Assembly (NCBI GenBank): GCA_947504725.1
Contig: CANNHN010000003.1
Location: 88,945-152,944 of the forward strand
Direction: 5' to 3'
DNA from: Bacteroidota bacterium
GTDB taxonomy: Bacteria; Bacteroidota; Bacteroidia; 2-12-FULL-35-15
Length of the DNA: 64,000 nt
Shown here one piece after another: positions 8,846 to 63,358 of the stretch. Positions within the stretch are counted from its first letter, which is position 1; each line of letters starts with the position of its first letter. Made by a program: the position numbers and the translations under genes. The notes below the pieces were generated by a model. It was not told the origin of the DNA. It did no database searches and worked only from the letters and a program-made list of their open reading frames with translations.

Positions 8846-8896
8846 TTCGACTCTGCTCTTGATGACAACTAATAGGTCACACTGAGCGGAGTCGAA
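8846..8896. repeat. Family-A repeat, imperfect inverted pair (hairpin) 20 bp downstream of the aconitase stop
   Basis: The left arm ttcgactctgctcttgatgac is largely complementary to the right arm gtcacactgagcggagtcgaa. The right arm is the Family-A 25-mer. No T-tract follows, so this is REP-like rather than a canonical intrinsic terminator. Confidence 0.6.
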
Positions 8897-8925
8897 GTGT
8901 TTACAGAGTACATTCTTATTCATCT

Positions 8926-23085: not shown

Positions 23086-23180
23086 AGGATCTTGTCCCCC
23101 TTTGAAGGGGGCTGGGGGATGATGATAGTCTTTATCAACAGGGAGATCCCGTGTCGTGGCACGGGATGACGGTTTCGAGA
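23086..23180. repeat. Family-C structured repeat (GGGAGATCCCGTGTCGTGGCACGGGATGACG hairpin) with an adjacent CCCCC-TTTGAA-GGGGG hairpin
   Basis: The perfect palindrome ATCCCGTG-tcgtgg-CACGGGAT lies at 23146-23167. A second copy set is at 54233-54330. The G+C content is high against an AT-rich background. Confidence 0.6.
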
Positions 23181-23874: not shown

Positions 23875-23899
23875 GTCAGCCTGAGCGTAGTCGAATGGC
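23875..23899. repeat. degenerate Family-A repeat half-site (gtcagcctgagcgtagtcgaatggc)
   Basis: It matches the Family-A consensus at 19 of 25 positions. It abuts the yidC stop codon and lies upstream of psd. Confidence 0.4.
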
Positions 23900-36660: not shown

Positions 36661-39600
36661 ATGAAGAATTTGAAAAAAAATATACTCCTTTCATTCATTT
36701 TATTATTAGTTAGTTCAATCTCGGCTACCAATTTGTATTGGGTAGGTGGAACAGGTTCGTGGAACCAAGCAATTCATTGGTCTTTAACTACCGGTGGTCC
36801 TTCTGGTGCAATTGTTCCTACTGCAAATGATGATGTTTATTTCGATCAAAATTCATTTTCAGCAGATCATCAAACCGTAATGGTTACCGTTAATGCGGTT
36901 TGTAGAAATATAGATTGGACGAATATCGACTCTAAAGCTATATTTTCTTGCTCTCCATCTAAATCGCTTTCAGTTTTTGGTTCTTATAAGCTTTCACCCT
37001 TATTAATGAATGGTTTTAAAGGAAAAACCATTTTTTCGGCAACCACAGCTAATAATGATATTTATTCGGCAGGTAAACCAATTATTGGTGATTGGCTTTT
37101 TAATGGCTCAGGTTCATGGAGTCTTCAAGATGATGTGAATGCAGCCAACGGTATTACCTTTTATTTGTTGAAAGGTTCATTAAGCACAAATGACAAAAAA
37201 GTAGTTTGTGATTATTTTAATGGAAATTCTACACAAACAAGAAATTTATCTTTAGGCAATTCTGAAATCACAATTAAAAAATGTTGGGATTTTTCAAATT
37301 CAATAAATGCTACATTGGATCCTGGTGCCTCTACAATTATTTTCCACGACACCATTAATGCCACTAATTTTAGAGATGGTAATTTAAGGTATGCTAGTGT
37401 TTCAACATTAAGAGCATTGGGTCAAAATACGGTTACGTGTGTATTTCCAGGAGTATTTACAATTACCCTAACCGCTGATAGTGTTACTTGTAACGGATTA
37501 TTAGATGGTTCTGTATGTGCTGTAGTTACGGGTGGTTCAGGAACATTTCTATATGATTGGAATTTTGCGGCTGTACCTGTTGGAGATGGAACCCCTTGTA
37601 TTACCCTTCGTCCTACTAGTGTAAATACATTGCAAGTGACTGATGTCGTTTCTGGAGTCACTCGCTTTTGTTCTATTACTGTTGGAGAACCTGCACTTTT
37701 ATTTGATTATGAAGTATTAAATATTTCGCCTACTTGTTTTGGTGTCTGCGATGGGTTAGCAGAGATTGACGAAACAGGGGGGACGCCTCCTTATACTTAT
37801 TCGTGGACAGGTGGATTAGGAACTAATGACTCAGCAATAAATGTTTGCGTTGGAACATATACAGTTACAGTTACTGATTCACGAGGTTGTACTAATAATG
37901 CAGCTGTAATCAATATGGTACAACCACCATTGCTAGTCGCTCCAGGATCTGCAACAATGATTAGTTGTTTTGGATTTTGTGATGGAACAGCAAGTGTAGT
38001 TGCATCTGGTGGATCAGTTCCCTACACATACGATTGGACACCTGGTGCACCGATTGGAGATGGAACTCCTGCTGTTACTGCATTGTGCCCAGCTAGTTAT
38101 ACATGTACTGTAACAGATATAAACGGATGTATTGCCACATTTGATACAACAATTACTCAGCCTTTGGTATTAACACTTACTATGTCGCAAGTGAATGCTA
38201 CTTGCGGAGGAATGTGTGATGGAACAGCAACAGCAACAGTTTCAGGTGGTACCACTCCCTATATTTATGTTTGGTCAAATGGTTCTGTAACTTCTACAGT
38301 TTCTACAACCAACACAATTAGTGGTTTGTGCGCTGGACCATATACCGTTACTGTTACTGATGCAAATGGCTGTACTTTAAATAATAATGTCACAATAACC
38401 GAGCCTCCTGTTTTGGTTGCTACTGCATCTGGAACCAATATTACTTGTTTTGGTTTATGTAATGGAACTGCGACTGTTGTCGTTGTCGGAGGAAATGGCG
38501 GTAATACTTTTGATTGGACACCTGGAAATCCTACGGGAGATGGAACAGCAAATATTACAGGTTTGTGTGCCGGAACATATACCGTTACCGTTTTTGATAA
38601 TACAGGAATTTGTACAGACACAGGAGTAGTTGTTATTACAGAGCCGGCAATTTTAGCAGCGAACCCAACAAGCACTAATGTTCTGTGTTTTGGTGCGTGT
38701 AATGGAACTGCAACTTCTATTCCTTCTGGTGGAACGCTTCCATATTCGTTTGATTGGACACCTGGAGCGCCAACAGGAGATGGTACGGCATTCATTATAA
38801 ATTTGTGTCCTAATACATATACTGTTACAGTTACTGATGGAAATGGCTGTACAAATAGTCAAAGTGTTGTCATTACACAACCCGCTGTTTTAAGTGATGG
38901 AGCTACTTTTACTAATGTATCATGTAATGGTGCTTGTGATGGAACTGCTACAGCAAATCCTGTAGGAGGTACTCCAGGCTATACCTATCTTTGGAGTACT
39001 GGAGCTATTACTCCTGGCATTACAGGCTTGTGTCCTGGTTCATATACTGTAACCGTAACAGATGCAAATCTTTGTACAAATTCTGGAACCGTTGTCATTA
39101 CTCAACCAAATATCTTAAACGTAAGTGTGGTTGCTTCAGCATTGGCTTGTAATGGCGATTGTAATGGAACTGCAGTTGCTACGATCTCAGGTGGAACAGC
39201 TCCTTTTGCAATTGATTGGACACCAGGCTCTCCGATTGGTGATGGAACTACTACTATTAGCTCTTTGTGTTCTGGAACATATACTATAAATGTTGTAGAT
39301 GCGAATGGTTGTCCTGGAACGGCTTCTGGGGCAGTGTTTGAGCCAACAGTTTTGGTATTGACTACATCAGTAACGGATGTTACCTGCTTTGCTGCTTGTG
39401 ACGGAACGGCCTCAGCTTTAGCTGGAGGTGGAACTCCTGGATATTCTTATTCTTGGTTGCCAGGCGCACTTTCAACTTCATCAATTTCTGGATTATGTCC
39501 AGGGAGTTATACTGTTACTGTTACCGATTTAAATGGTTGTACTATTTCAGATACAGTTACGATAATTGAACCAACCCAAGTGTTTGCAAATCCAGCAGTA

Positions 39601-42600
39601 GTAAGTAATATTAGTTGTGCTGGAGTTATTCCATGTGATGGTTCTGCAACAGCAACTCCTTCAGGTGGAACTGCGCCATATTCTTTATTTAATTGGTCGC
39701 CTGGTGCTCCCGCTGGTGATGGAACGCCAACTATTACAGGTTTGTGTGCTGGAATTTATAGCGTAACAATTTTGGATGCAAATGGTTGTCCTTCAACTAT
39801 GTCAGTCACAATCACTCAGCCCTTGGCTTTGAGTGCTCCCATTACGAGTTCTACATCTAGTTGTAATATTTGTAATGGATCAGCAACTGTAACGCCTGCA
39901 GGTGGAACTCCTGGTTACACTTATTTGTGGATGCCTACTGGGCAAACAACTCAAACCGCAATTGGACTTTGTCCAAATATTACTTACACGGTAACTGTTA
40001 CCGATGCGAATGGTTGTGTTGCTAGTAGCTCAGTTTTAATTACACAAACAATTATTATTAGCATTACAACTTCTCCAACAACATTAAGTTGTTTTGGGGC
40101 ATGTGATGGTGTTGTTACTGCAAATGCTGCAGGAGGAACGTTGCCATATAGTTTTATTTGGACTGGCCCATCTCCATCAACAGCTACTATTTCTTTAACG
40201 CAAACAGCAACTGCATTATGTGCAGGAACATATGTTGTGAATGTTTCAGACGCAGCAGGTTGTTTCAATAGCGATTCAATCACATTTTCTAATCCTCCTG
40301 TATTAACAATAAGCGCAGTAAGTACCAACGAAACTTGTAATGGTTCTTGTGATGGAACCGCTACAGCAACTGGTGTTGGAGGAACGGCACCGCTAAGCTA
40401 TTCATGGAATACGGTTCCTATTCAAAACACTGCAATAGCTACGGGGTTGTGTACAGGAACGTATACAGTTACTGTTACTGACGCAAGTGGTTGTACTGCT
40501 ACTACTACTGTAAGTATTGCTGGTCCACCTGCTGTAATAGATAACGTTACTATTACGGATGCGAATTGTACGTTTGCTGATGGTCAAATTACTGTAGCAC
40601 CTACGGGCGGTGCAGGAGCTGGAACATATACTTTTAATTGGGGTCCTGGTGCTCCAACTGGAGATGGAACTTCAACCATTACTGGATTACTGCCAGGAGT
40701 TTACACTTTAGCAATTACAACAGGAGGTTGTACTTATAACTTCAGTTATATTTTAAATAATATTGCAGGACCAACAACAACAATGTCACATATAGATGTT
40801 TCCTGTTTTGGTGCATGTGATGGAACAGCAAGTGTTTTGGCAGCAGGCGGAGCAGGTGGTTATGTGTTTGATTGGACGCCCGGAGTGCCTACAGGTGACG
40901 GAACAGCAGCTATTACTGCTTTGTGCGGAACTACTACTTATACTGTTACCGTTGTTGATGCAGCGGGTTGTATCACGATTGATACAGCAAGAATTATTAA
41001 TCCATCATTGATATCACCAAACCCAACTGTTGTTCTAGAAAGTTGTGGTGGTGCATGTGATGGAAGTATTACATTGGTTCCAACAGGAGGAACTGGACCC
41101 TACACTTATTCTTGGTCAGGTGGATTACCTCCCACATCTAGTCAAACTGGATTATGTGCTGGTGTATACACAGTAACTGTTCTCGATACAAATCTATGTG
41201 ATTCTATTTTAACAATTACAATTACTGCCCCACCAACTTTAATTGTTACACTTTCTTCAACTGATGTTTTATGTGCTGGAGCTTGCGATGGAACAGCAAC
41301 TGCAACAGCAGTTGGTGGAACAGGAGCTGGAACATACATTTATTCTTGGTTACCAAATCCTCCCTTAGGTCCACTTTTCCCTTTGCCAACAGTTGTTGGA
41401 TTGTGTCCTGGAAGTTATGATGTAACAGTAACTGATGGAAACGGCTGTACGGCAGCAGACACTATAATTATTACTGAACCCATTGCCTTAACAACTGTAA
41501 CATCTCAAACAAATGCTTCCTGTTTTGGAGTATGTGATGGAGAAGCTGTTGTAACTCCAAGCGGAGGAACATTACCTTACACATTTATTTGGAATCCAGG
41601 AGCGATTGCAAACGATACTGCTAGTGGATTGTGTGCTGGAAATTATATCGTTACAGTTACCGATGCGAACGGTTGTGTTTCAATTCCTCCAACAGTAATT
41701 ATTACAGAGCCAGCTCCAATTCTTCCGAATGCAACTTTTGTAAATCCTTTATGTAATGGTTCATGTAATGGAACAGCTACTGCAAATCCAACAGGTGGTT
41801 CTGGTGTTTATACTTATTCATGGAATACTATTCCTGTTCAAATTACGCAAACCGCAGTTGGATTGTGTTCGGGAACATATATCGTTACTGTTGACGATGG
41901 AAGTTGTTCAAATACACAAAGTATTACTTTAATAGATCCACCAATCTTAAATGCAAATGCAACTGCTACTTCTCCAACTTGTGTTGGCGATTGTGATGGA
42001 AGTGTTACTGCAAACCCAGTTGGTGGAACAGGAACATATTCTTATTCGTGGACACCTGGTGCGATTGCAACTCAAACTGTAATTAATTTATGTCCGAATA
42101 TTTATACAGTAATTGTAAATGATGGAAACGGCTGTGCCGATACTCAAGTTGTAATACTAGCAAATCCTATTGGTATTGATGTGGTTGTAGGTAGTACTCC
42201 TGCAAATTGTGGGGCATGTGATGGAACAATATCTCTTGTGCCAATAAGCGGAACAGGTCCTTATACTTATGTTTGGACGCTTGGAGGTCTTCCTCCACCG
42301 TTACCTTTCGCTGGAAATGGAACACCAAATGTCACAAATGTTTGCGCAGGATTGTATGATGTTTTAGTTACAGATGCAAATGGTTGTGATTCTACATTCA
42401 CTATACCAATGAATAACTCTAGTGGCCCAACAGGTGAAACCGTAATTACAACTCCTACATCATGTAATGGAGTTTGTGATGGAACGGGTTCTGTTACTCC
42501 AATTGGTGGATTAGCTCCTTACACATTCTTATGGAATGATGGACCACCTGCAACTGCACTTGATACAGCTTTTGGATTGTGTACTGGAAATTATTTTGTT

Positions 42601-45258
42601 CAAGTTACTGATGCAAGTGGATGTATTCATTTCAGTCCAGTTACTATTGTAGAACCAGCTCCAATCGTTCCAAACGAAGTTATCACTTTGGCACTTTGCA
42701 GTAATATTTGTACTGGTGCCATTACTGTTACCCCTTCTGGTGGAACTGCTGGATATTCCTATTTTTGGACTCCTGGAGTAATTGTTGGACAAGGTACAAA
42801 TAGTGTTTCTGGATTATGCGCAGGAACATATACGTTAAGTATAACGGATGCAAATTCATGTGTGCAAATTGATTCATTTGTTGTAGGGCAATCAACTCCG
42901 CTTACAGCAACTATTAACTCAACAACTATTTCATGTTCTTCTGCATCAACAGGAATTGCTTATATCAATATTACTTCTGGTACGGGTCCATATACAATTC
43001 AATGGAACGATTCTTTCGGACAAACAAATGATACAGCTTTTGCATTGGCAGCTGGTAATTATTCTGTTGACATTACTGATGCACTTGGTTGTATTCTTAC
43101 TTTAACAACAACCATTACTGCAACTCCGCCCGTTTCTGCAAATGCAGTAATTACAGCTTCTACCTGCGGATTGTGTGATGGTAGTGCAATATTAACCCCA
43201 ACAGGAGGAACTGCTGGCTTTACTTATTTGTGGAGCAACGGACAAACTACTTCAACTGCAACAGCTTTATGCGCAGGTTTATATACTGTTGATATTACAG
43301 ATGCGAATGGTTGTATCACAAGTGTGGCTGTTCCTGTAAATAATATAGGCGGACCAACAAGTGCTGTAATTGCTTCAACAAATGTTACTTGTAATGGATT
43401 GTCAAATGGTACTGTAACTGCAGTCACTCCAAGCGGTGGAACTGCTCCTTATACTTTCTTGTGGATTGCGAGTGGTTCAACCACTGCTGCTCAATCAGCT
43501 TTAGGTGCAGGAACTTATTTTGTTCAAATCACAGATGCAAACGGTTGTTCATTAATTGATTCTGTAATAATTACAGAGCCTGCTGCTATTTCGGCTAATC
43601 AAGTAATACTTGCAGCAACTTGTGGATTGTGTGATGGTTCTGTTACTCTTACTCCAACTGGTGGTGCAGGTGGTTATACTTATTTGTGGAATACTGGTGC
43701 TACCACATCTTCATTAGCAGCTTTATGTGCTGGTGTTTATTCAGTTGATATTACTGATGTTGCAGGATGTGTTGTAAATGTTGTTATTACCATTAATAGT
43801 CAAACCGGTCCAACACTTGTTACTTCGTCAACGTCTAATTTATGTAATAGTACTTGCACTGCAACAGCAAGTGTAGTGGCTACAGGTTCCTCTCCATTCG
43901 CTTATTTGTGGACACCAACTTTACAAACCACGCCAAGTACAACAGCAACTCTTTGTGCTGGAACATATTTTGTTCAAGTAACAGATGCTGTAGGTTGTGT
44001 AACCATTGCTTCTACAACAGTTACGGAGCCTGATACTATTGGATTTAGTATTGCAAACGCACAAGACCCATTGTGTAACGGAAATGCAAATGGATCTATA
44101 ACAGTTATTCCGTCAGGAGGAACTTTGTCATATACTTATTCATGGACACCAGCTCCGGCACTTGGACAAACTACAGGAACAGCAATTAATCTTAATGCAA
44201 ATACCTATATCGTTACAGTTACAGATACGAATGGATGTATTGCAACACAAACGATAACACTCGTAAATCCAACTTCTTTAACAATTAGTAATACTTCTGT
44301 TAATTCAAGTTGTAATACTATTCCTGATGGTTCAATTGATGTAACTGTTGGAGGTGGTACTCTTCCATATGCATATCAATGGAGTGGTGGTTCAGTTGCA
44401 ATTACTGAAGATTTAGTTGGAATTTTAAGTGGAACATATACAATTACTGTTACCGATTCAAATTCTTGTACAATTGCCGATACAATTATTTTGTTGCCTA
44501 ACCAAACTGTTATTGCAGTTGCAGGAAATGATACTTCTTTCTGTCAGTCGGGCTCAATTACATTGGATGCTTCGGCAAGTGTTAACGGTACATCTTATCA
44601 GTGGTTTGATTTGAGTGGTACTCTTTTAGGTTCTTCTATTACTTTAACATTTAATCCACCTGCAGGTACAAATAGTTTTTATGTGGTTGTAGATAATGGT
44701 ACAGGTTGTAGTGATAGCGATACGGTTGATGTTACTGCAAATCCTTTGCCTACTGCAAATGCTGGGGCAGATGTTACAATAATTCTTGGAGGATCAATTG
44801 GTATTGGTGGAAGTCCTACAACTACATCTGTTGGAGCAACATTTTCTTGGTCTCCAACTCTTGGTTTAGATAATGCAACAATTGCAAATCCATCTGCAAA
44901 TCCAATAACAACTACAACGTATACTGTAACTGTTACTTCTGCTCAGGGGTGTACCGCAGTTGATTCAGTAATAGTAACAGTTCGACCTACAATTATTTTC
45001 CCTGATGGTATTTCTCCAAATGCGGATGGTGCAAACGATGAGTGGATAATTGATGGGATTGAATTATTCCCTAATTGTGAAGTTGAGGTGTACAATCGTT
45101 GGGGTGAATTATTATTTCAATCAGTGGGATACAAAGAAAATTGGGATGGAACATTCAAAGGACAATTCTTGCCTGTTGGAACTTATTATTATGTGATAGA
45201 TTTAAAAGATGAATTATTTCCTGATGCTTATACCGGTCCAATAACAATACTTAGATAA
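36661..45258 (+). CDS. SprB-repeat giant cell-surface adhesin with a T9SS type-B C-terminal sorting domain (CHU_C / gliding-motility-associated CTD)
   Basis: A 2,865-aa protein with a signal peptide. I count about 29 tandem ~95-aa modules of the form ...Cx(G)xC(D/N)GTATA...GGTxPYTYxWxPG...GLC(A/P)GTYTVTVTDANGC..., which are SprB repeats. The C-terminus is FPDGISPNADGANDEWII...VEVYNRWGELLF...WDGTFKGQFLPVGTYYYVI, which is the TIGR04131 / type-B CTD. Confidence 0.8.
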   Translation: MKNLKKNILLSFILLLVSSISATNLYWVGGTGSWNQAIHWSLTTGGPSGAIVPTANDDVYFDQNSFSADHQTVMVTVNAVCRNIDWTNIDSKAIFSCSPSKSLSVFGSYKLSPLLMNGFKGKTIFSATTANNDIYSAGKPIIGDWLFNGSGSWSLQDDVNAANGITFYLLKGSLSTNDKKVVCDYFNGNSTQTRNLSLGNSEITIKKCWDFSNSINATLDPGASTIIFHDTINATNFRDGNLRYASVSTLRALGQNTVTCVFPGVFTITLTADSVTCNGLLDGSVCAVVTGGSGTFLYDWNFAAVPVGDGTPCITLRPTSVNTLQVTDVVSGVTRFCSITVGEPALLFDYEVLNISPTCFGVCDGLAEIDETGGTPPYTYSWTGGLGTNDSAINVCVGTYTVTVTDSRGCTNNAAVINMVQPPLLVAPGSATMISCFGFCDGTASVVASGGSVPYTYDWTPGAPIGDGTPAVTALCPASYTCTVTDINGCIATFDTTITQPLVLTLTMSQVNATCGGMCDGTATATVSGGTTPYIYVWSNGSVTSTVSTTNTISGLCAGPYTVTVTDANGCTLNNNVTITEPPVLVATASGTNITCFGLCNGTATVVVVGGNGGNTFDWTPGNPTGDGTANITGLCAGTYTVTVFDNTGICTDTGVVVITEPAILAANPTSTNVLCFGACNGTATSIPSGGTLPYSFDWTPGAPTGDGTAFIINLCPNTYTVTVTDGNGCTNSQSVVITQPAVLSDGATFTNVSCNGACDGTATANPVGGTPGYTYLWSTGAITPGITGLCPGSYTVTVTDANLCTNSGTVVITQPNILNVSVVASALACNGDCNGTAVATISGGTAPFAIDWTPGSPIGDGTTTISSLCSGTYTINVVDANGCPGTASGAVFEPTVLVLTTSVTDVTCFAACDGTASALAGGGTPGYSYSWLPGALSTSSISGLCPGSYTVTVTDLNGCTISDTVTIIEPTQVFANPAVVSNISCAGVIPCDGSATATPSGGTAPYSLFNWSPGAPAGDGTPTITGLCAGIYSVTILDANGCPSTMSVTITQPLALSAPITSSTSSCNICNGSATVTPAGGTPGYTYLWMPTGQTTQTAIGLCPNITYTVTVTDANGCVASSSVLITQTIIISITTSPTTLSCFGACDGVVTANAAGGTLPYSFIWTGPSPSTATISLTQTATALCAGTYVVNVSDAAGCFNSDSITFSNPPVLTISAVSTNETCNGSCDGTATATGVGGTAPLSYSWNTVPIQNTAIATGLCTGTYTVTVTDASGCTATTTVSIAGPPAVIDNVTITDANCTFADGQITVAPTGGAGAGTYTFNWGPGAPTGDGTSTITGLLPGVYTLAITTGGCTYNFSYILNNIAGPTTTMSHIDVSCFGACDGTASVLAAGGAGGYVFDWTPGVPTGDGTAAITALCGTTTYTVTVVDAAGCITIDTARIINPSLISPNPTVVLESCGGACDGSITLVPTGGTGPYTYSWSGGLPPTSSQTGLCAGVYTVTVLDTNLCDSILTITITAPPTLIVTLSSTDVLCAGACDGTATATAVGGTGAGTYIYSWLPNPPLGPLFPLPTVVGLCPGSYDVTVTDGNGCTAADTIIITEPIALTTVTSQTNASCFGVCDGEAVVTPSGGTLPYTFIWNPGAIANDTASGLCAGNYIVTVTDANGCVSIPPTVIITEPAPILPNATFVNPLCNGSCNGTATANPTGGSGVYTYSWNTIPVQITQTAVGLCSGTYIVTVDDGSCSNTQSITLIDPPILNANATATSPTCVGDCDGSVTANPVGGTGTYSYSWTPGAIATQTVINLCPNIYTVIVNDGNGCADTQVVILANPIGIDVVVGSTPANCGACDGTISLVPISGTGPYTYVWTLGGLPPPLPFAGNGTPNVTNVCAGLYDVLVTDANGCDSTFTIPMNNSSGPTGETVITTPTSCNGVCDGTGSVTPIGGLAPYTFLWNDGPPATALDTAFGLCTGNYFVQVTDASGCIHFSPVTIVEPAPIVPNEVITLALCSNICTGAITVTPSGGTAGYSYFWTPGVIVGQGTNSVSGLCAGTYTLSITDANSCVQIDSFVVGQSTPLTATINSTTISCSSASTGIAYINITSGTGPYTIQWNDSFGQTNDTAFALAAGNYSVDITDALGCILTLTTTITATPPVSANAVITASTCGLCDGSAILTPTGGTAGFTYLWSNGQTTSTATALCAGLYTVDITDANGCITSVAVPVNNIGGPTSAVIASTNVTCNGLSNGTVTAVTPSGGTAPYTFLWIASGSTTAAQSALGAGTYFVQITDANGCSLIDSVIITEPAAISANQVILAATCGLCDGSVTLTPTGGAGGYTYLWNTGATTSSLAALCAGVYSVDITDVAGCVVNVVITINSQTGPTLVTSSTSNLCNSTCTATASVVATGSSPFAYLWTPTLQTTPSTTATLCAGTYFVQVTDAVGCVTIASTTVTEPDTIGFSIANAQDPLCNGNANGSITVIPSGGTLSYTYSWTPAPALGQTTGTAINLNANTYIVTVTDTNGCIATQTITLVNPTSLTISNTSVNSSCNTIPDGSIDVTVGGGTLPYAYQWSGGSVAITEDLVGILSGTYTITVTDSNSCTIADTIILLPNQTVIAVAGNDTSFCQSGSITLDASASVNGTSYQWFDLSGTLLGSSITLTFNPPAGTNSFYVVVDNGTGCSDSDTVDVTANPLPTANAGADVTIILGGSIGIGGSPTTTSVGATFSWSPTLGLDNATIANPSANPITTTTYTVTVTSAQGCTAVDSVIVTVRPTIIFPDGISPNADGANDEWIIDGIELFPNCEVEVYNRWGELLFQSVGYKENWDGTFKGQFLPVGTYYYVIDLKDELFPDAYTGPITILR

Positions 45259-46186: not shown

Positions 46187-46211
46187 TCGCAACCATCTTC
46201 CCCACACTTTT

Positions 46212-46235
46212 GTCACTTCGAGCGGAGTCGAGAAG
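46212..46235. repeat. Family-A repeat half-site (gtcacttcgagcggagtcgagaag)
   Basis: A near-identical 24-mer to the copy at 49300-49325. It lies just downstream of the PorP/SprF stop. Confidence 0.65.
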
Positions 46236-46284
46236 TCCCTGTCCAAAAACACTTACACTCATTTATGAAAATGCATATTACGGA

Positions 46285-46393
46285 GCGTCATTGCGAGTCC
46301 CGTCCCGATAATTCGGGACGGGACTCGCAATCTCATCCATAAAGGGTTGACTATGCTGGTGTGGGATTGCTTCGTGCCTCGCAATGACGTTCT
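46285..46393. repeat. Family-B MITE-like element (~105 bp, 12-bp terminal inverted repeats CGTCATTGCGAG...CTCGCAATGACG) with an internal perfect 18-bp-stem hairpin
   Basis: The left end is gcgtcattgcgag. The internal palindrome is ttgcgagtcccgtcccga-taat-tcgggacgggactcgcaa. The right end is ggattgcttcgtgcctcgcaatgacgttc. Copies are at 47385-47487 and 59874-59980, with partial copies at 52421-52465 and 63338-63358. Confidence 0.7.
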
Positions 46394-46436
46394 TATTTAT
46401 GCTTTGATTTATTTAAAGAAAGTTTATATTTGTTAC

Positions 46437-47378
46437 ATGAAAAAACAAATGCTTCCTGTACTTATTCTTTTTATCTTTTTGTCGTCAAAGCTCGTTTCCC
46501 AACCATTTGCCGATATTCTCAACTTTAATTATCAAACTTTTTCATCAAACTATACTGATAGTACTCAATGGAAAAATAAAACAGACAATTATTTTCTTAA
46601 TTTATTTTTACCGAAGAATTTTAAAAATGGAAACACATTTTTGTTGCGTTTGAATTCTGAGCATTTAAGTTCTACTATCAGTCCTGATTCATCTTATTCT
46701 TATTCTTTAACCAGTATTTCTATGCCAATTGGAATGAAGTTGGTTTCAAAAAATAAAAAATGGGAAACAGTTGTATTGGTTATACCTAAAATTGCTTCCG
46801 ACTTTAGAGATGCTATTGATGCAAACGATTATCAATACGGAGGAATATTCTTAGAACACTTTGTGCCGAATGATAAAGTGAAAATTAAAGCTGGATTATA
46901 TTATAATCGTGAAGCTTTTGGAGACTTGTTTGTGCCATTAGTTGGTGTAGATTGGAAAGTAAATGACCGAATAAATTTATATGGAATTTTGCCAACAAAC
47001 TATAAAGTTGAATTCAATCTTTTGAAAAACAAATTATACACAGGAGTGAATCTGAAATTTTTCACCCGTTCATTTCGATTATCACAAACTCAAAACAACG
47101 ATTATGTGCGTTACGATGAATCGCAAGTGAAAATTTTTGTGGATTATTTTGTTGTTCCTAAAGTGCTCTTGTTTGCTGAAGTAGGCTATTCCATTGGCAG
47201 AAGCCCTTGGCAACATAAAAACGGCACAAACGAGAAGAAAGAGCCTTATTATGCAAATCCAATTTATACACCTATTAAAAACTATCCTATTATAAGTGTT
47301 GGTTTGGCGTATCGTGTGAGATTTGATTTGATAAAGAAGGAAGAAGCTAAAACAGCAATGATAACTCCTGCATTTTAA
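46437..47378 (+). CDS. hypothetical outer-membrane/secreted protein (signal peptide; beta-rich)
   Basis: The ATG at 46437 gives MKKQMLPVLILFIFLSSKLVSQ, a signal peptide. The ORF-track start at 46347 adds 30 codons that are simply a translation of the Family-B repeat, so I reject that extension. Confidence 0.5.
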   Translation: MKKQMLPVLILFIFLSSKLVSQPFADILNFNYQTFSSNYTDSTQWKNKTDNYFLNLFLPKNFKNGNTFLLRLNSEHLSSTISPDSSYSYSLTSISMPIGMKLVSKNKKWETVVLVIPKIASDFRDAIDANDYQYGGIFLEHFVPNDKVKIKAGLYYNREAFGDLFVPLVGVDWKVNDRINLYGILPTNYKVEFNLLKNKLYTGVNLKFFTRSFRLSQTQNNDYVRYDESQVKIFVDYFVVPKVLLFAEVGYSIGRSPWQHKNGTNEKKEPYYANPIYTPIKNYPIISVGLAYRVRFDLIKKEEAKTAMITPAF

Positions 47379-47384
47379 TTACGG

Positions 47385-47487
47385 GGCGTCATTGCGAGAG
47401 AAGCGAAGCAATCTCACACTAGTATCGTCAGCCCTTAATGGATGAGATTGCCACATCGCGCGAAAAGGAGCGAATCGCAATGACGTT
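47385..47487. repeat. Family-B MITE-like element, full copy
   Basis: The sequence runs ggggcgtcattgcgagaagcgaagcaatctcacac...atgagattgccacatcgcgcgaaaaggagcgaatcgcaatgacgttc. It has TIRs (1 mismatch) and an internal hairpin gcgcg-aaaagga-gcg. It is collinear with the copy at 59874-59980. Confidence 0.7.
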
Positions 47488-47532
47488 CTTTTATTCAACA
47501 GTTTAAGAAGAACAAATATTATTATTAAACCT

Positions 47533-48000
47533 ATGTCAAAAAAGAAAAAGTTTTTTATCCTATTGGTTATTGTTTTTATCATCATTCAATTCATTCGTCC
47601 GGAGCGCAATCTTGGCAAACGTGAAACAGAAAATACCATTTTTGTTTCCAACGAAGTAGGGCAAATTTTGCAAACTTCTTGTTTTGATTGTCATTCCAAT
47701 TATACGGTATACCCTTGGTATACCAATATTCAACCAATTGGTTGGTGGTTGAATCACCACGTGAATGAAGGGAAGGAAGAATTGAATTTTTCGGAATTTG
47801 AAACTTATTCTTTAAAACGCAAACTCCATAAGTTGGAAGAGATTAAGGAGATGGTGGATGAAAATGAAATGCCATTGCCTTCTTATTTGTGGATTCATGG
47901 AGAAGCAAAATTAACTTCTGAGCAAAAAGATGTGCTTTCAAAGTGGGTGTTGGAGACAAGAAAATATCTTGCAGATACGCTTTCTAGACCGAAATTGTAA
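47533..48000 (+). CDS. putative heme-binding domain (Haem_bd) protein
   Basis: CFDCHSNYTVYPWYTNIQPIGWW...GKEELNFSEF matches the conserved CxxCH-like heme-binding domain family. An N-terminal TM helix is present. Confidence 0.5.
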   Translation: MSKKKKFFILLVIVFIIIQFIRPERNLGKRETENTIFVSNEVGQILQTSCFDCHSNYTVYPWYTNIQPIGWWLNHHVNEGKEELNFSEFETYSLKRKLHKLEEIKEMVDENEMPLPSYLWIHGEAKLTSEQKDVLSKWVLETRKYLADTLSRPKL

Positions 48001-49238: not shown

Positions 49239-49299
49239 GAAAAAAGTAGACAATTGTCAGTAGACAAGAAAAATAAATAAAAAATAGACAAATGTTTTT

Positions 49300-49325
49300 G
49301 TCACTTCGAGCGGAGTCGAGAAGCG
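49300..49325. repeat. Family-A repeat half-site, ending 1 nt before the NifU-like start codon
   Basis: The sequence is gtcacttcgagcggagtcgagaagcg, followed immediately by the ATG at 49326. Confidence 0.65.
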
Positions 49326-50960: not shown

Positions 50961-51044
50961 GCGCCCTTCGACTCCGCTCAGGGTGACGTTCTAATGAATG
51001 TTACTCTCTGCCGTCACACTGAGCGGAGTCGAAGTGTAAGGGCT
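50961..51044. repeat. Family-A repeat, inverted pair forming a ~27-bp-arm hairpin
   Basis: The left arm gcgcccttcgactccgctcagggtgac (50961-50987) and the right arm gtcacactgagcggagtcgaagtgtaagggc (51014-51044) are reverse complements apart from a 4-nt insertion. Confidence 0.7.
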
Positions 51045-51741: not shown

Positions 51742-52392
51742 TTACTCCAAAACAATCTTCTTAGTCAAAACTTTATCGGCAACAAGTACTTGTACGAAAT
51801 AAATCCCGCTCCGTAAATCACCTCTGTCTATTGCTAAAGTTTTTTCAGTAGTTGAAACAGTCTTCACCATTTTTCCCGTAACATCATACAGCTTAATAGT
51901 AGTTGCAGTGTTATTTAATTCACTTAGATCTAAATTGATGATAGTGGTTGCAGGATTTGGATATATATTGAAAGAAACGTTTGATGCAAGTTCATTTATT
52001 CCAACCGAGCAAGTCATTGGATAGCTGTAAGCACAAGCCGGCAAAGAATCTGTTGGGTCATCCAAATAAACAGTTCCAGTAAATCCAGCTGAAATGCTAT
52101 CAACTGAGGTTGGAATAGTGTGTGCAACAGTATCGCCAGCTAACTGTCCGAAAAAGTAATATAGAGTATCGATATTTGCAATGGTATCTCCCAACGAATT
52201 GGTTACTACAACTATCGGATAATTTATAAAAACACTATCGCCATTGTAAATAGTAACATCAAGTGTGTTGCTTCCTGCTGTATCAACATTGTTAATGTTG
52301 AGTATGCAAAAACTTCCGCAAGTAATATTTTGTGATTTACTAGAAAAAGTAAATGCGATGATAGCGATGGAAAGGAGTAGTAATTTTTTCAT
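51742..52392 (-). CDS. T9SS type-A C-terminal sorting-domain protein (small secreted cargo of unknown function)
   Basis: The C-terminus is FNIYPNPATTIINLDLS...GIYFVQVLVADKVLTKKIVLE. The ATG at 52392 (MKKLLLLSIAIIAF) is the likely start. The ORF-track GTG start at 52431 extends into the Family-B repeat. Confidence 0.65.
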   Translation of the reverse strand: MKKLLLLSIAIIAFTFSSKSQNITCGSFCILNINNVDTAGSNTLDVTIYNGDSVFINYPIVVVTNSLGDTIANIDTLYYFFGQLAGDTVAHTIPTSVDSISAGFTGTVYLDDPTDSLPACAYSYPMTCSVGINELASNVSFNIYPNPATTIINLDLSELNNTATTIKLYDVTGKMVKTVSTTEKTLAIDRGDLRSGIYFVQVLVADKVLTKKIVLE

Positions 52393-52420
52393 AATAATGA
52401 TTTCAATTCTGCACTTAAAT

Positions 52421-52465
52421 GAGATTGCCACATCACGCTAAAAAGCGTGACTCGCAATGACGTCC
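52421..52465. repeat. Family-B element, right half only (gagattgccacatc + hairpin + ctcgcaatgacg TIR)
   Basis: The sequence is gagattgccacatcacgctaaaaagcgtgactcgcaatgacgtcc. It is identical in architecture to the right halves of the copies at 47441-47487 and 59935-59980. It fills the gap between pyrG and the T9SS cargo gene. Confidence 0.65.
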
Positions 52466-54232: not shown

Positions 54233-54330
54233 TCGTCATGCCGTGCCACGACACGGCATCTGCCTGTTGATGGCGACTCGCCTACTAATCGGGAGATCCC
54301 GTGTCGGGGCACGGGATGACGTTTGAAAAG
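54233..54330. repeat. Family-C structured repeat, inverted pair of units
   Basis: Unit one is cgtcatgccgtgccacgacacggcatctgcc and unit two is gggagatcccgtgtcggggcacgggatgacg. They are reverse-complement-related to each other and to the copy at 23136-23180, and each unit is itself a hairpin. Confidence 0.6.
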
Positions 54331-57442: not shown

Positions 57443-59821
57443 TTAAAACTCAATCTTATATCCAAAATAAGGAAACAAGCCCAACTGGTATTCTTGTTGC
57501 ACTTTTTGTAAAATAGGGTCGTATGATTCTCTTAAAATATTTTTCGTGTCAAAAATATTCTCAACCACTAAAAAAATGCTTTGTGAAGTTCGTTTGCGAT
57601 TCGTTTTGTAAGAAACTTTAAGGTCGAATCGTGAATAATCTTTCAACTGTTTTGAAAATGCTTCTGAGTCATTATAAACAACATCGCCATAAATTTTTGA
57701 TTTTTCTAAATCAATAGGAGTGTATCTATTTCCTCCTGCTTGTGTGAATTTTAAATCAATTGATAATGCTCTGTTTTTGTTTTTTCCTAAGTTGAATTCG
57801 TATCCAGCCAATGCATTTAGAACATAACCTCCGTCATAGCTTGTGTGATGTTCCACACCATTGCTTCCTCTGTATTTAGATTGATAAAGTGATACAGTAG
57901 CTAAATAATAAAAGTGTTTGTTGAAGAATTTTTCAATAGTAAGTTCAATTCCTATGTTTTCTCCATCACCTTTGTTTTCTAAACTATCCACCAATGGAAT
58001 TCCTTCTAATGCATTACCAACATTAATCATTGAAAAAGAGGATTGATAATTTTTTTGAACAGGAACATTGTAAACGTATTGATAATATCCTTCTATTTTT
58101 AATCGATAATCTTTAGCAAAATTTAAATCGTAACTTATGATGGCATGTTGACTTTTTGATAGATCTAAAGTTTTGTTGCTTCTGAAATAGCTATCCGTAG
58201 AAGGGATGTATGTTTCATAAAAGTAGTATATGGTGGGTTGCATCTGACTATGCATGCCATATCCTAAGCTTAAATTTTGCTTTTTACTAACTTGGAATCG
58301 CAACCCCAAACGTGGTTCAATTGCAGAAGTGTTGTTTAATAAAAAATTCTGATAATGTACTCCGCTGTTAATTGTGATTTTGTCTGTTGGTCGAAACTGC
58401 CAATGTGCAAAGCCTTGTATTAAATCAGCTGTAGAGTTTTTCACATTTAAATCATAAATGTATTTCCCATAAATATTAGAATAAGAAAACGATTTAGCAT
58501 CAAAATAAATGGTTTGATATGTTGCACCAATTTTTATCAAATGCTTTGCATTTATTTTTTTAGAAACAGTATAGTTTGCAATAAAATTAGCTTCGGTAGA
58601 TTTGTTCTTTCTGTCTAAAAATGAAGACTGATCCACAGGAGAGATAGTATCAACATACGCATCTAAATCAGTTCCAGAAACGGATAAAGAGAGTTTGCCA
58701 GATGTTTTTGAATTGAAAAAATATAAATGAGAAACTCCCGTTGCTCCCATGCTTGATCCGAAAACTAGATCTTGACCTCCTGTTATATAGGACCAGTCAG
58801 TAGATTTTCGATCGCTATCTAATAAAGTTAATTTGCTTTTTCCACCAATTCCCCAAAGTGTAAATATTCCAGCTTTTTTAGTTGGCACATTCACTTTGTA
58901 TGAAATGTCTTGGTATTGAGGACTTGCAGAAACGCCAAACCGAATCCCCAATTTATTAAACACTTCCAAAGTAGAATATCGATAATTAATTAAGTAAGAG
59001 CTTCCATTTTTTTTCGAGATAGGGCCTTCAGCGCCTAATTCAACACCATTAATCCCGAGTGAGCCAGTGTATTCATTTTGTTCGTTGTTCCCATTTCTTA
59101 ATTTGATATCAAAAACAGCAGCTGTTTTATTCCCGTATTCAGCAGGGAAGGCGCCCGTTAAAAAATCGGAGTTGCCTAAAATATTATTGTTAAGCATGCT
59201 TATTGGCCCACCGGTAGCGCCTTGTGCAGAAAAATGATTGGGGTTAGGAATGTCTATTCCTTCCATTCTCCATAAAACACCTAGTGGTGAATTTCCTCTT
59301 ACAATAATATCATTTCGTGCATCATTTCCAGATGAAACACCAGCATAGTTTGCAACCATTTTGCTTGGGTCGCCTCTACTGCCAGCATATCTTCCCGTTT
59401 CTTCCGCCAAAAAATTACGAGACGAAACCGTTACCAAATCATTGTTGGCTTTTGTTTTGTCTTTTTCCGCTACCACTTCTACTACATTGGAAGTGTATAC
59501 TTTTTCTCTTAATTCAATGTTGAGAACAACTTCTTTTCCGGAAGTGACAATAATATTGTTGATGAATGTTTCTTCGTAACCAATAGAACTAATTTTTAGT
59601 GCTCTTCTTCCAACAGGAATTTTATCCAATCTGAACTTTCCCTCTCCATCGCTAGAAGAACCAATCAATGTGTCGCTGTTTACTAAAATGATAGTTGCTC
59701 CCGGTATTGTGGATTTGGAATCGGCATCAATCACTTTTCCACGGATAGTTTGTGTATAGGTTTGCGCGCTAAGATTTAGTCCGCTTATTATAATTAGAAA
59801 TATAAAAGTGATTTTTTTCAC
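57443..59821 (-). CDS. TonB-dependent receptor with an N-terminal carboxypeptidase-regulatory-like domain
   Basis: It has a signal peptide. The CarbopepD_reg-like block is TIRGKVIDADSKSTIPGATIILVNSDTLIGSSSDGEGKFRLDKIPVGRRAL. A plug and beta-barrel follow, with the C-terminus ...YKIEF. Confidence 0.8.
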   Translation of the reverse strand: MKKITFIFLIIISGLNLSAQTYTQTIRGKVIDADSKSTIPGATIILVNSDTLIGSSSDGEGKFRLDKIPVGRRALKISSIGYEETFINNIIVTSGKEVVLNIELREKVYTSNVVEVVAEKDKTKANNDLVTVSSRNFLAEETGRYAGSRGDPSKMVANYAGVSSGNDARNDIIVRGNSPLGVLWRMEGIDIPNPNHFSAQGATGGPISMLNNNILGNSDFLTGAFPAEYGNKTAAVFDIKLRNGNNEQNEYTGSLGINGVELGAEGPISKKNGSSYLINYRYSTLEVFNKLGIRFGVSASPQYQDISYKVNVPTKKAGIFTLWGIGGKSKLTLLDSDRKSTDWSYITGGQDLVFGSSMGATGVSHLYFFNSKTSGKLSLSVSGTDLDAYVDTISPVDQSSFLDRKNKSTEANFIANYTVSKKINAKHLIKIGATYQTIYFDAKSFSYSNIYGKYIYDLNVKNSTADLIQGFAHWQFRPTDKITINSGVHYQNFLLNNTSAIEPRLGLRFQVSKKQNLSLGYGMHSQMQPTIYYFYETYIPSTDSYFRSNKTLDLSKSQHAIISYDLNFAKDYRLKIEGYYQYVYNVPVQKNYQSSFSMINVGNALEGIPLVDSLENKGDGENIGIELTIEKFFNKHFYYLATVSLYQSKYRGSNGVEHHTSYDGGYVLNALAGYEFNLGKNKNRALSIDLKFTQAGGNRYTPIDLEKSKIYGDVVYNDSEAFSKQLKDYSRFDLKVSYKTNRKRTSQSIFLVVENIFDTKNILRESYDPILQKVQQEYQLGLFPYFGYKIEF

Positions 59822-59873: not shown

Positions 59874-59980
59874 CGGAGCGTCATTGCGAATGGATAGAAG
59901 GAATCTCACACGAACTTCGACAGCCCAGTTAAGATGAGATTGCCAAATCACCCCGAATACTTTGGGTGACTCGCAATTAT
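59874..59980. repeat. Family-B MITE-like element, full copy (right TIR degenerate)
   Basis: The sequence is gcggagcgtcattgcgaatggatagaaggaatctcacacgaacttcgacagcccagttaagatgagattgccaaatcaccccgaatactttgggtgactcgcaattatg. It is collinear block-by-block with 47385-47487. Confidence 0.7.
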
Positions 59981-60052
59981 GTTCTATGTTAAGATTGTCG
60001 TTCGAGAAAACATTTGGGTTTTCCATCAGTAGAATATTGCTATTTTTGTAGA

Positions 60053-60838
60053 ATGAACAACCAACTATCCTTTTTTGGCCAATTTGGATTAGCCATTAAA
60101 AGCTATGGGAAAGCTATTTCATTTGTTTTTGAAAAAGGGTTATGGATATATTTTATTTATACCATTATCATTGCTTGTATCCTTACTTTCGGTGGTTTTA
60201 AATTGATTCATAGTTTGGTAGATTGGATTGAAGGGTGGATAATGTCTTATGTAAGTTCCGATTCCGATACTGGTATTTTTAGTTTTTTAGGTACCGCATT
60301 GCATGTGCTTTTATCAGTAGGACTAAAGATTTTATTCTTTTTTGTTTTCTCTACTTTTAGCAAATATATTTTATTGATTATAATGTCGCCCATTATGGCA
60401 TTGCTGTCTGAACGGACAGAGGAAATTATTACTGGAAACGTTTATCCATTTAATATTGCTCAATTTATTAAAGATATTATTAGAGGAGTTGTTATCGCTC
60501 TTCGTAATATGTTCATAGAATTTGGTTTTATTTTTCTTGGTTTTTTTTTTGTTTGGATTCCTATAATTGGATGGATTTGTGCACTGTTTTTAGTTGTTAT
60601 ATCTTATTACTTTTACGGGTTTTCAATGATTGATTATGTAAGTGAAAGAAGAAAGATGGGTATTTCTCAGAGCACGTCTTATGTTAGGAAGCACAAAGGA
60701 TTAGCTATAGGGAATGGATTTATATTTTCATTAATATTCGCAATTCCCTTTATTGGTGCAATCATCGGTGCGGTTATAGCACCTGTAGCTGCTTGTATTG
60801 CTGTTATGGATTTAGAAAGTAGACATGCAAAAAATTAA
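60053..60838 (+). CDS. EI24/CysZ-like (DUF540) integral membrane protein
   Basis: It has about 5 TM helices. The conserved N-terminal block is FGQFGLAIKSYGKAISFVFEKGLW. The ATG at 60053 is preferred. Confidence 0.4.
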   Translation: MNNQLSFFGQFGLAIKSYGKAISFVFEKGLWIYFIYTIIIACILTFGGFKLIHSLVDWIEGWIMSYVSSDSDTGIFSFLGTALHVLLSVGLKILFFFVFSTFSKYILLIIMSPIMALLSERTEEIITGNVYPFNIAQFIKDIIRGVVIALRNMFIEFGFIFLGFFFVWIPIIGWICALFLVVISYYFYGFSMIDYVSERRKMGISQSTSYVRKHKGLAIGNGFIFSLIFAIPFIGAIIGAVIAPVAACIAVMDLESRHAKN

Positions 60839-63337: not shown

Positions 63338-63358
63338 TTCCTTGCAATGACGATTCTT
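63338..63358. repeat. Family-B TIR fragment (ccttgcaatgacgattc)
   Basis: It matches the right terminal repeat ctcgcaatgacg plus flanking bases. It is a solo fragment. Confidence 0.3.

Follow-up and report, generated by a model that had tools for sequence, protein, structure and literature searches.

Hairpin doublets in the window

The 64,000-nucleotide (nt) stretch of contig CANNHN010000003.1 from a Bacteroidota bacterium (positions 88,945 to 152,944; "the window", in whose own numbering coordinates are given here) carries a multi-copy, non-coding family of short elements bounded by inverted repeats, referred to as Family B. A first-pass annotation of the sequence had described these elements as miniature inverted-repeat elements (MITEs) with 12-bp terminal inverted repeats (TIRs). 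The family itself is well founded: the 12-mer CGTCATTGCGAG, allowing at most one mismatch, has seven matches in the window against 0.09 expected, and none of 100 shuffles reaches seven. The copies comprise three doublets (c1, c2 and c3), one single unit (p4) and a remnant.

46286..46389, minus strand: doublet c1, a heterodimer with interior and spacer inverted relative to c2
46286-46335, plus strand: plus-strand unit of c1, CGTC-ATTGCGAG-(TCCCGTCCCG ATAATT CGGGACGGGA)-CTCGCAAT-CTCA
46336-46361: spacer of c1
46362-46389: inverted unit of c1, TGGG-ATTGC-TTCGTGC-CTCGCAATGACG
47387..47485, plus strand: doublet c2, a heterodimer, right TIR with one mismatch
47387-47416: left unit of c2, CGTCATTGCGAG-AGAAG-CGAA-GCAAT-CTCA
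47417-47442: spacer of c2
47443-47485: inverted right unit of c2, apical hairpin GCGCG-AAAAGGA-GCG, right tag AATCGCAATGACG
59879..59981, plus strand: doublet c3, a decaying copy with both TIRs degraded (left tag arm CGTCATTGCGAA, right arm CTCGCAATTATG)
52419..52462, minus strand: p4, a single complete unit, on the minus strand CGTCATTGCGAG-TCACGC-TTTTTA-GCGTGA-TGTG-GCAAT-CTCAT
63341..63352, minus strand: 12-nt remnant of one arm plus tag (CTTGCAATGACG on the plus strand, CGTCATTGCAAG on the minus strand), one mismatch to the TIR

Doublet c3 additionally has GAAGGAATC in place of GAAGCAATC, and its apical hairpin is CACCCC-GAATACTTT-GGGTG. All copies in the window are intergenic, as the first-pass annotation had it, and their neighbours are ordinary genes (for SprF, a haem-binding protein, the CTP synthase PyrG and a CysZ-like protein). 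Several begin 3-30 nt past a stop codon; c2 starts 8 nt past the stop of ORF313 and p4 is a few nt downstream of that of pyrG, while c3 sits between the divergent open reading frames (ORFs) 57443-59821 (minus) and 60014-60838 (plus). Of the five copies originally listed, the three full ones hold; the supposed partial copy at 52421-52465 is the complete unit p4, and that at 63338-63358 amounts to the 12-nt remnant. The shared block architecture proposed for the copies was also borne out, with a correction to the accompanying list of hairpins: it omitted c1's own TCCCGTCCCG-ATAATT-CGGGACGGGA, and the hairpin acgc-taaaa-gcgt belongs to p4.

Anatomy and folding of the units

Every copy in the window obeys a single grammar, CGTC-ATTGC-GAG-(variable apical segment)-CG(AA/TG/CG)-GCAAT-C(T/C)CA. 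An unpaired 5' tag, (C)GTC, is followed by a 5-bp basal stem (ATTGC/GCAAT), a conserved internal loop (GAG opposite CGAA, CGTG or CGCG) and a copy-specific apical stem-loop, and the palindrome is succeeded by a 3' C and the tail YCA. A doublet pairs two such units, inverted with respect to each other and with their tags pointing outward, around a spacer that is 20-27 nt long in the window. The apparent 12-bp TIRs result from this arrangement, every "TIR" being the 5' arm of a hairpin unit that is self-contained and also occurs alone. Units in the window are 31-50 nt long, and the GTC 5' and the C 3' of the hairpin-forming palindrome are conserved. The tag reads CGTC at all eight window tag positions where it is intact, and NGTC across related loci. 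The basal stem follows the AT-first rule of CGTC-tagged repeats (see below). An 8-bp stem (ATTGCGAG/CTCGCAAT) is found in the left unit of c1 only; every other unit has 5 bp and then the GAG/CGAA internal loop.

The apical segment is the variable part of the unit. The 175 distinct units collected from related loci contain 135 different apical sequences, 3-45 nt long (median 11) and often forming a second hairpin; of the 125 segments of at least 9 nt, 52 equal or surpass the best of 50 shuffles in folding. Thus the variable hairpin between conserved flanks, pointed out in the first-pass annotation, is real and general. The sequence after GCAAT is most often CTCAT (93/175 units), followed by CTCAA (13/175) and CCCAT (12/175), in a sample that is biased by the search pattern. 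With DNA parameters p4 folds at -10 kcal/mol into the 5-bp basal stem, the internal loop and an apical stem drawn as eight pairs around the TCACGC/GCGTGA core. Whole doublets c1 and c2 fold far better than their shuffles (z of -7.8/-9.5 and -3.5, respectively) and c3 weakly (-1.8/-2.4). Folded as RNA, each copy does about equally well on its two strands. Basal stems and tags keep an invariant sequence and show no covariation, and a T-rich run (TTCTTTTATT, TTCTTATTTAT) follows c1 and c2.

Insertion and site turnover among relatives

We compared 80 loci that are orthologous via the Mrp/ApbC gene (L-numbers are the labels of the loci compared). The closest relatives (L146, L147/148, L149, L150, L152, L155 and L157) keep the synteny SprF-ORF313-Haem_bd-Mrp and lack any tag arm at the positions of c1 and c2. 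The SprF/ORF313 intergenic site is without c1 in L146, L149, L151 and L152, and the ORF313/Haem_bd site is without c2 in L146, L147, L149, L150, L152, L155 and L157; the intergenic DNA of these relatives is too diverged for base-by-base alignment, and the boundaries of the empty sites are therefore inexact. In the uncultured Bacteroidota population from which the window derives, no contig differs from another at c1 or c2, and 8 of 8 have c2. One apparent insertion in a source-population contig (L138 2979-2988) was rejected as an assembly artefact, being a scaffold N-gap with foreign sequence inside the ORF313 orthologue.

The sequences flanking the doublets differ. Because of this, and because c1 and c2 are absent from the syntenic loci of the closest relatives, c1, c2 and c3 are, on sequence comparison, independent insertions and not parts of a larger duplicated segment, a possibility that the first-pass annotation had itself raised. 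No direct repeats that would represent a target-site duplication flank any copy; left and right flanks are TTACGGAG/TTCTTATT for c1, TTACGGGG/TTCTTTTA for c2 and TGCGGAG/TTCTATGT for c3. The single unit p4 is present at the same site between pyrG and a type IX secretion system gene in L146, a related species, identical base for base, and is thus vertically inherited.

Intergenic sites can also hold different hairpin families in different relatives. The Mrp-to-NifU site (49239-49325 in the window) has five states, involving Family B and two related families, Family A and a sister family, that are described below.

Window: Family A hairpin
L145 2343-2458: doublet of the sister family
L146 6087-6202: Family-A-like unit with a compensatory stem
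L151 6066-6194 and L160 1995-2122: single Family B units
Five further loci: empty

Similarly, past the SprF stop the window carries Family A where L146 has a hairpin of the sister family. These changes of hairpin family suggest targeted replacement or a hot spot. The Rickettsia palindromic elements (RPE) RPE-4/-6/-7 behave likewise, with site replacement, according to a published study of R. japonica.

Distribution across genomes

A scan of one genome per species was made with the inner blocks only (GAAGCAATCNCA, a gap of 15-32 nt that sets the spacers permitted, and ATGAGATTGC). At least 120 stretches across many phyla match, and so the copy number is not limited to the five copies of the window, which the first-pass annotation had named as the outcome that would count against it. 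Among the matches listed that lie away from contig ends, 97 of 129 have both outer tag arms, which the pattern does not force. The hosts, again among the matches listed, include isolates of Flavobacterium, Mucilaginibacter, Pedobacter, Rickettsia and Nostoc, representing three phyla, plus metagenome-assembled genomes (MAGs) labelled as more than 20 further phyla (for example Chloroflexota, Elusimicrobia, Planctomycetes, Patescibacteria, Chlamydiae, Zixibacteria and Cloacimonadota), labels that may hold some binning errors. Each lineage has spacers of its own, and each copy its own apical segment. Doublets of Rickettsia are found in L035, L046, L066, L091 and L121; an NCBIfam scan of three open frames of Rickettsia copies matched no family, RPE or other. 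Single units are common in viral-labelled contigs. A literature search with the sequence string returned unrelated primers only.

The Bacteroidetes MAG RYN_276, a relative of the source organism (74% nucleotide identity over 2.7 kb), has at least seven doublets, five of them with identical, perfect 36-bp arms. The RYN_276 doublets (L058, L105, L069, L101, L124, L023 and L059) abut on one side a conserved module of about 50 nt, TTCTTAAAG...TTTTATGGTACAAAGTTCCGGATACT, which can be on either side relative to the orientation of the spacer. In a Chloroflexia MAG (L068 3847-6077) doublets are arranged in tandem with a period of about 127 nt.

GIY-YIG genes flanked by the units

Six GIY-YIG genes were recovered (L099, L121 and L225-L228), and all six are adjoined by units. 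Those of Flavobacterium gawalongense (L099) and Rickettsia tamurae (L121) were met by chance in loci with copies, and in both the small GIY-YIG ORF is tightly bracketed by units. The other four, from a viral-labelled contig (L225) and three Flavobacterium genomes (L226-L228), were sampled via the protein alone. The L099 protein is confirmed as PF01541; for L226-L228 this family is a precomputed annotation, L121 was assigned by phmmer to L099 (E = 2.8e-24) and L225 by homology to L099. In five of the six genes, including L225, L226 and L227 of the protein-sampled group, both sides have a tag-arm match no more than about 110 nt away. In L228 both clean tag-arm matches are upstream; downstream there is a degenerate copy that fails to match.

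Units cluster around the gene in these loci: in L226, 15 of 16 tag arms are within about 1 kb of it, compared with a background of roughly one tag arm per 20 kb in the Mrp loci. The three Flavobacterium proteins share 86-88% identity with that of L099 and yet are encoded in unrelated contexts (MutS/DCC1, Fic/HsdM and SSB/DinB), which indicates that the gene moves together with its repeats. The catalytic residues of the L099 protein are spaced (Y7, Y18, E66) much as in SsnA of Neisseria meningitidis (Y6, Y17, E64). A PDB sequence search with the GIY-YIG protein gave no match, and that to E. coli YhbQ, made with an approximate query sequence, is weak. A large array is that of L226 (2143-3670), where at least 14 tag arms accumulate beside the GIY-YIG gene of Flavobacterium sp. 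K5-23.

Related hairpin families and other features of the window

Two further families of tagged hairpins accompany Family B in the window.

54234..54322, no strand assigned: inverted doublet of the sister family, CGTC-ATGCCGTG-CCACGA-CACGGCAT-C and CGTC-ATCCCGTG-CCCCGA-CACGGGAT-C
23142-23171, minus strand: sister-family singleton
46212..46236, plus strand: Family A hairpin, (T)GTC-ACTTC-GAGCGGAGTCGA-GAAGT
8876-8900, 23875-23899, 49300-49324 and 51013-51037: other Family A copies

The sister family has the consensus CGTC-AT(C/G)CCGTG-CCMCGA-CACGG(G/C)AT-C, and the stems of the two arms of its doublet differ by a compensatory G/C change. Its units at 54292-54321 and 23142-23171 match the published search pattern for Ssn-related motifs (SRM; see below), giving two hits against 0.11 in shuffles. 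Family A has the tag, the GAG...CGA core and the tail grammar in common with Family B and differs in its basal stem; all of its copies are intergenic and near stop codons. A generic scan of the window for GTCA plus a 6-bp stem is not enriched (9 hits against 8.4 in shuffles); only the specific families are meaningful.

ORF313 (46440-47378), which matches no Pfam family and is kept beside SprF in relatives, is bracketed by c1 and c2, a repeat-gene-repeat layout reminiscent of that described for surface-protein genes of Neisseria. The ORF called mechanically at 51742-52431 (minus) with a GTG start overlaps p4; the ATG at 52392 is probably the real start. The region 36661-45258 encodes an SprB-repeat protein of 2865 aa, has dozens of copies of a repeat of about 237 nt and is followed by a PorP/SprF gene; it dominates the direct-repeat output.

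Alternative explanations

Classical MITEs, to which the first-pass annotation assigned the elements, are deletion derivatives of a TIR-bounded insertion sequence (IS), moved in trans by its DDE transposase. A length of about 100 bp, the non-coding and multi-copy character, terminal inverted repeats of at least 12 bp and insertion polymorphism among relatives all fit such an origin. However, target-site duplications are missing, the "TIR" belongs to a hairpin unit that is found alone (p4, L146, L151 and L160), and near-identical termini in many phyla are unlike IS-derived MITEs. The window encodes no transposase, as had been noted originally, and no IS or DDE transposase with matching ends was found in it or among 5132 ORFs around 139 copies (about 0.94 Mb): clustering of these ORFs recovers common families (PAS/kinase, UvrA) and translated repeats as the recurrent ones, and no linked transposase. 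The elements are not classical MITEs, and an origin of that kind is highly improbable. Mobilisation as REPINs, doublets of repetitive extragenic palindromes (REPs), by a REP-associated tyrosine transposase (RAYT, an HUH/Y1 transposase) has the architecture in its favour, since two inverted REP hairpins, a spacer and an unpaired tetranucleotide tag are what REPINs consist of (PMC3116915, PMC3733652). Here the tag is CGTC and not GTAG, the units flank a GIY-YIG gene instead, and phmmer with an approximate query sequence of E. coli RayT found no RAYT-like ORF in the window or in 136 loci; REPs with a CGTC tag are moreover reported to be without RAYT association (PMC3733652). We consider this origin very unlikely. 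Chance similarity, or a larger duplicated segment, has nothing to recommend it beyond the small copy number in the window, and is of negligible probability given the excess of TIR matches over expectation, the unrelated flanking genes and the number of stretches found in the scan.

A structured RNA, that is a terminator, a 3'-UTR stabiliser or a small RNA selected for its folding, corresponds to the RNA-level function favoured in the first-pass annotation. It would account for the strong folding, for the start of several copies 3-30 nt past a stop codon and for the T-rich run after c1 and c2, and REPs can affect mRNA stability (PMC3733652). On the other side, Rfam gives no match, either at gathering thresholds on the whole window or at E<=10 on 46200-47560, and a simple terminator scan calls none. 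Both strands fold equally, c1 and c2 are opposite in orientation after same-strand genes, c3 is located between divergently oriented ORFs, and the basal stems and tags are invariant instead of covarying; Ssn also does not bind RNA (PMC11893778). The elements are thus probably not RNA elements, an explanation that we regard as unlikely, and a secondary effect of the copies on transcripts is possible. A protein-binding site, the other function that had been guessed at, is the better suggestion, and the partner is probably a nuclease of the GIY-YIG type specific for single-stranded DNA (ssDNA) (PMC11893778). Hammerhead ribozymes, attC sites, dif sites and invertons were considered as well and rejected, their motifs not matching.

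Interpretation and proposed mechanism

The elements are very probably inverted dimers of CGTC-tagged hairpin units of the SRM class. Taken as a whole, the likely picture is one of inverted dimers of CGTC-tagged REP/SRM units that are read by a predicted Ssn-type GIY-YIG nuclease, in an association resembling that of REPs and RAYTs. Recognition of the units as ssDNA by a cognate Ssn-type nuclease is a fairly probable prediction, based on the flanking association and on the conserved GTC and C.

According to this model, each unit would fold into a hairpin whenever the DNA becomes single-stranded, during replication, transformation or conjugation. A small single-domain Ssn-type GIY-YIG nuclease, encoded elsewhere in the genome, would read the hairpin together with the flanking GTC and C, and would nick a few nt 5' of the tag. 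Repeats and nuclease gene would then constitute a REP/RAYT-like association, in which units may come, go and replace each other at intergenic sites near gene ends without target-site duplication. Whether the nuclease drives this spread or replacement of units is a more speculative matter, and we put it forward tentatively, because a GIY-YIG nuclease alone does not religate DNA and there is one cleavable unit per strand. It is conceivable, if somewhat doubtful, that the doublets are non-autonomous replicators of a REPIN/RAYT-like system that has an Ssn-type GIY-YIG ssDNA nuclease instead of an HUH transposase. Copying could run via a nick beside an existing hairpin and subsequent repair templated on another copy. 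This would explain the replacement of families at orthologous sites, the absence of target-site duplications and the near identity of one sequence type across phyla.

Several observations weigh against the Ssn-based interpretation. A GIY-YIG nuclease alone cannot rejoin DNA, and either strand of a doublet presents just one of the two units in cleavable orientation. There is no GIY-YIG gene within the 64-kb window, and what makes the flanked proteins candidates for the Ssn clade (CDD cd10448) is PF01541 and the Y/Y/E spacing. The units also deviate from the described classes in their geometry: the basal stem in the window is 5 bp with a GAG/CGAA internal loop, against the 8-9 bp of CGTC-tagged REPs, and the second-tier hairpin is variable and 3-45 nt long, where those REPs have a loop of 4-5 nt. 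Finally, the published SRM pattern, HGTCWYN(0-2)YYVSBRHN(0-5)WNVSBRGN(0-2)RNCYNB, matches no Family B or Family A unit.

If copying does proceed in the way outlined, repeats would have a new, ssDNA-dependent route by which to spread. How such repeats turn over could be studied concretely through the replacement of hairpins at orthologous intergenic positions. Family B would extend the Ssn/SRM concept to a sequence type that the published pattern misses, in Bacteroidota and many other phyla, and would link it to the Rickettsia palindromic elements. Should the cognate nuclease have its own specificity, it would provide a further enzyme/site pair for the ssDNA tools that have been proposed for Ssn enzymes. 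For annotation it is relevant that the repeats seed spurious ORF tails, whose translated frames include DCFVPRNDV, VIAR.EA.QSH and ..LAMT.

Comparison with known systems

Bacterial MITEs (Correia, Nezha, ERIC and others) are like Family B in size, TIR-like ends, intergenic location and copy number, but they have target-site duplications and a parent IS, neither of which is found here. REPIN/RAYT systems and bacterial interspersed mosaic elements (BIMEs) of γ-proteobacteria are also inverted doublets of tagged hairpins, non-autonomous, and connected with a small nuclease gene that is itself flanked by the repeats. They differ in having a GTAG tag and an HUH Y1 transposase, where Family B has CGTC and a GIY-YIG nuclease gene. 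RAYTs also pass on mostly by vertical inheritance, in contrast to the Flavobacterium GIY-YIG gene, which occurs in differing contexts.

The superfamily of CGTC-tagged REPs was defined by Di Nocera, De Gregorio and Rocco (2013, BMC Genomics 14:522; PMC3733652). Its members have an unpaired CGTC or TGTC (also CCTC) tag, an 8-9-bp stem whose first pairs are A-T and T-A, a 4-5-nt loop and a CCA-like tail. They are mostly inverted dimers, homo- and heterodimers, with spacers of 20-100 nt, and are intergenic near gene ends. They occur in five phyla including Bacteroidetes, and also in Rickettsia, with no associated transposase and no RAYT association. Some families are the dRS3 repeats of Neisseria and RPE-4/RPE-6 of Rickettsia, and the ATGAC-bearing RPE-4/-6/-7 are tied to the CGTC-tagged class in the literature. 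Family B is alike in its unpaired CGTC tag, AT-first stem, short C-rich tail and lack of an adjacent transposase. Its organisation in the window, with three doublets and one singleton, heterodimers and an intergenic location near gene ends, is also that of CGTC-tagged REPs. The ATTGCGAG sequence type is not named in the text of PMC3733652, which has four families. We see the class as already described and pan-bacterial, with the Family B sequence type as a new member of it and arguably a geometric variant.

The NTS repeats of Neisseria and the SRM, studied together with the nuclease SsnA by Chenal et al. (2025, Nat Commun 16:2388; PMC11893778), supply the link to a protein. SRM measure 20-50 nt and are inverted repeats able to form a hairpin, with the GTC before and the C after the palindrome conserved. 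SRM flank genes for single-domain GIY-YIG proteins of about 94 aa (SsnA, cd10448), 71% of the homologues having one nearby and 42% on both sides. For binding, SsnA requires NTS/SRM hairpins to be ssDNA and in one orientation; it nicks a few nt upstream and does not bind RNA. Binding depends critically on the C just past the palindrome, and cutting on the three nt before it. In Neisseria the NTS-SsnA system limits transformation by DNA carrying the sites. The authors remark on the IS-like NTS-ssnA-NTS layout and on the parallel with REP/RAYT, and leave the role in other bacteria open (PMC11893778). The present case differs in that the nuclease gene is not in the window, and the role in transformation is known from Neisseria and not from Bacteroidota. 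The CGTC-AT...AT-C grammar is common to Family B and the NTS (CGTCATTCCCGCG..GCGGGAATCYRG), and the positions that are invariant in the window, GTC and C, are those that SsnA needs. As with SRM, units stand on both sides of genes for single-domain GIY-YIG proteins of about 100 aa, and Rickettsia, where Family B doublets occur, is among the SRM-rich genera.

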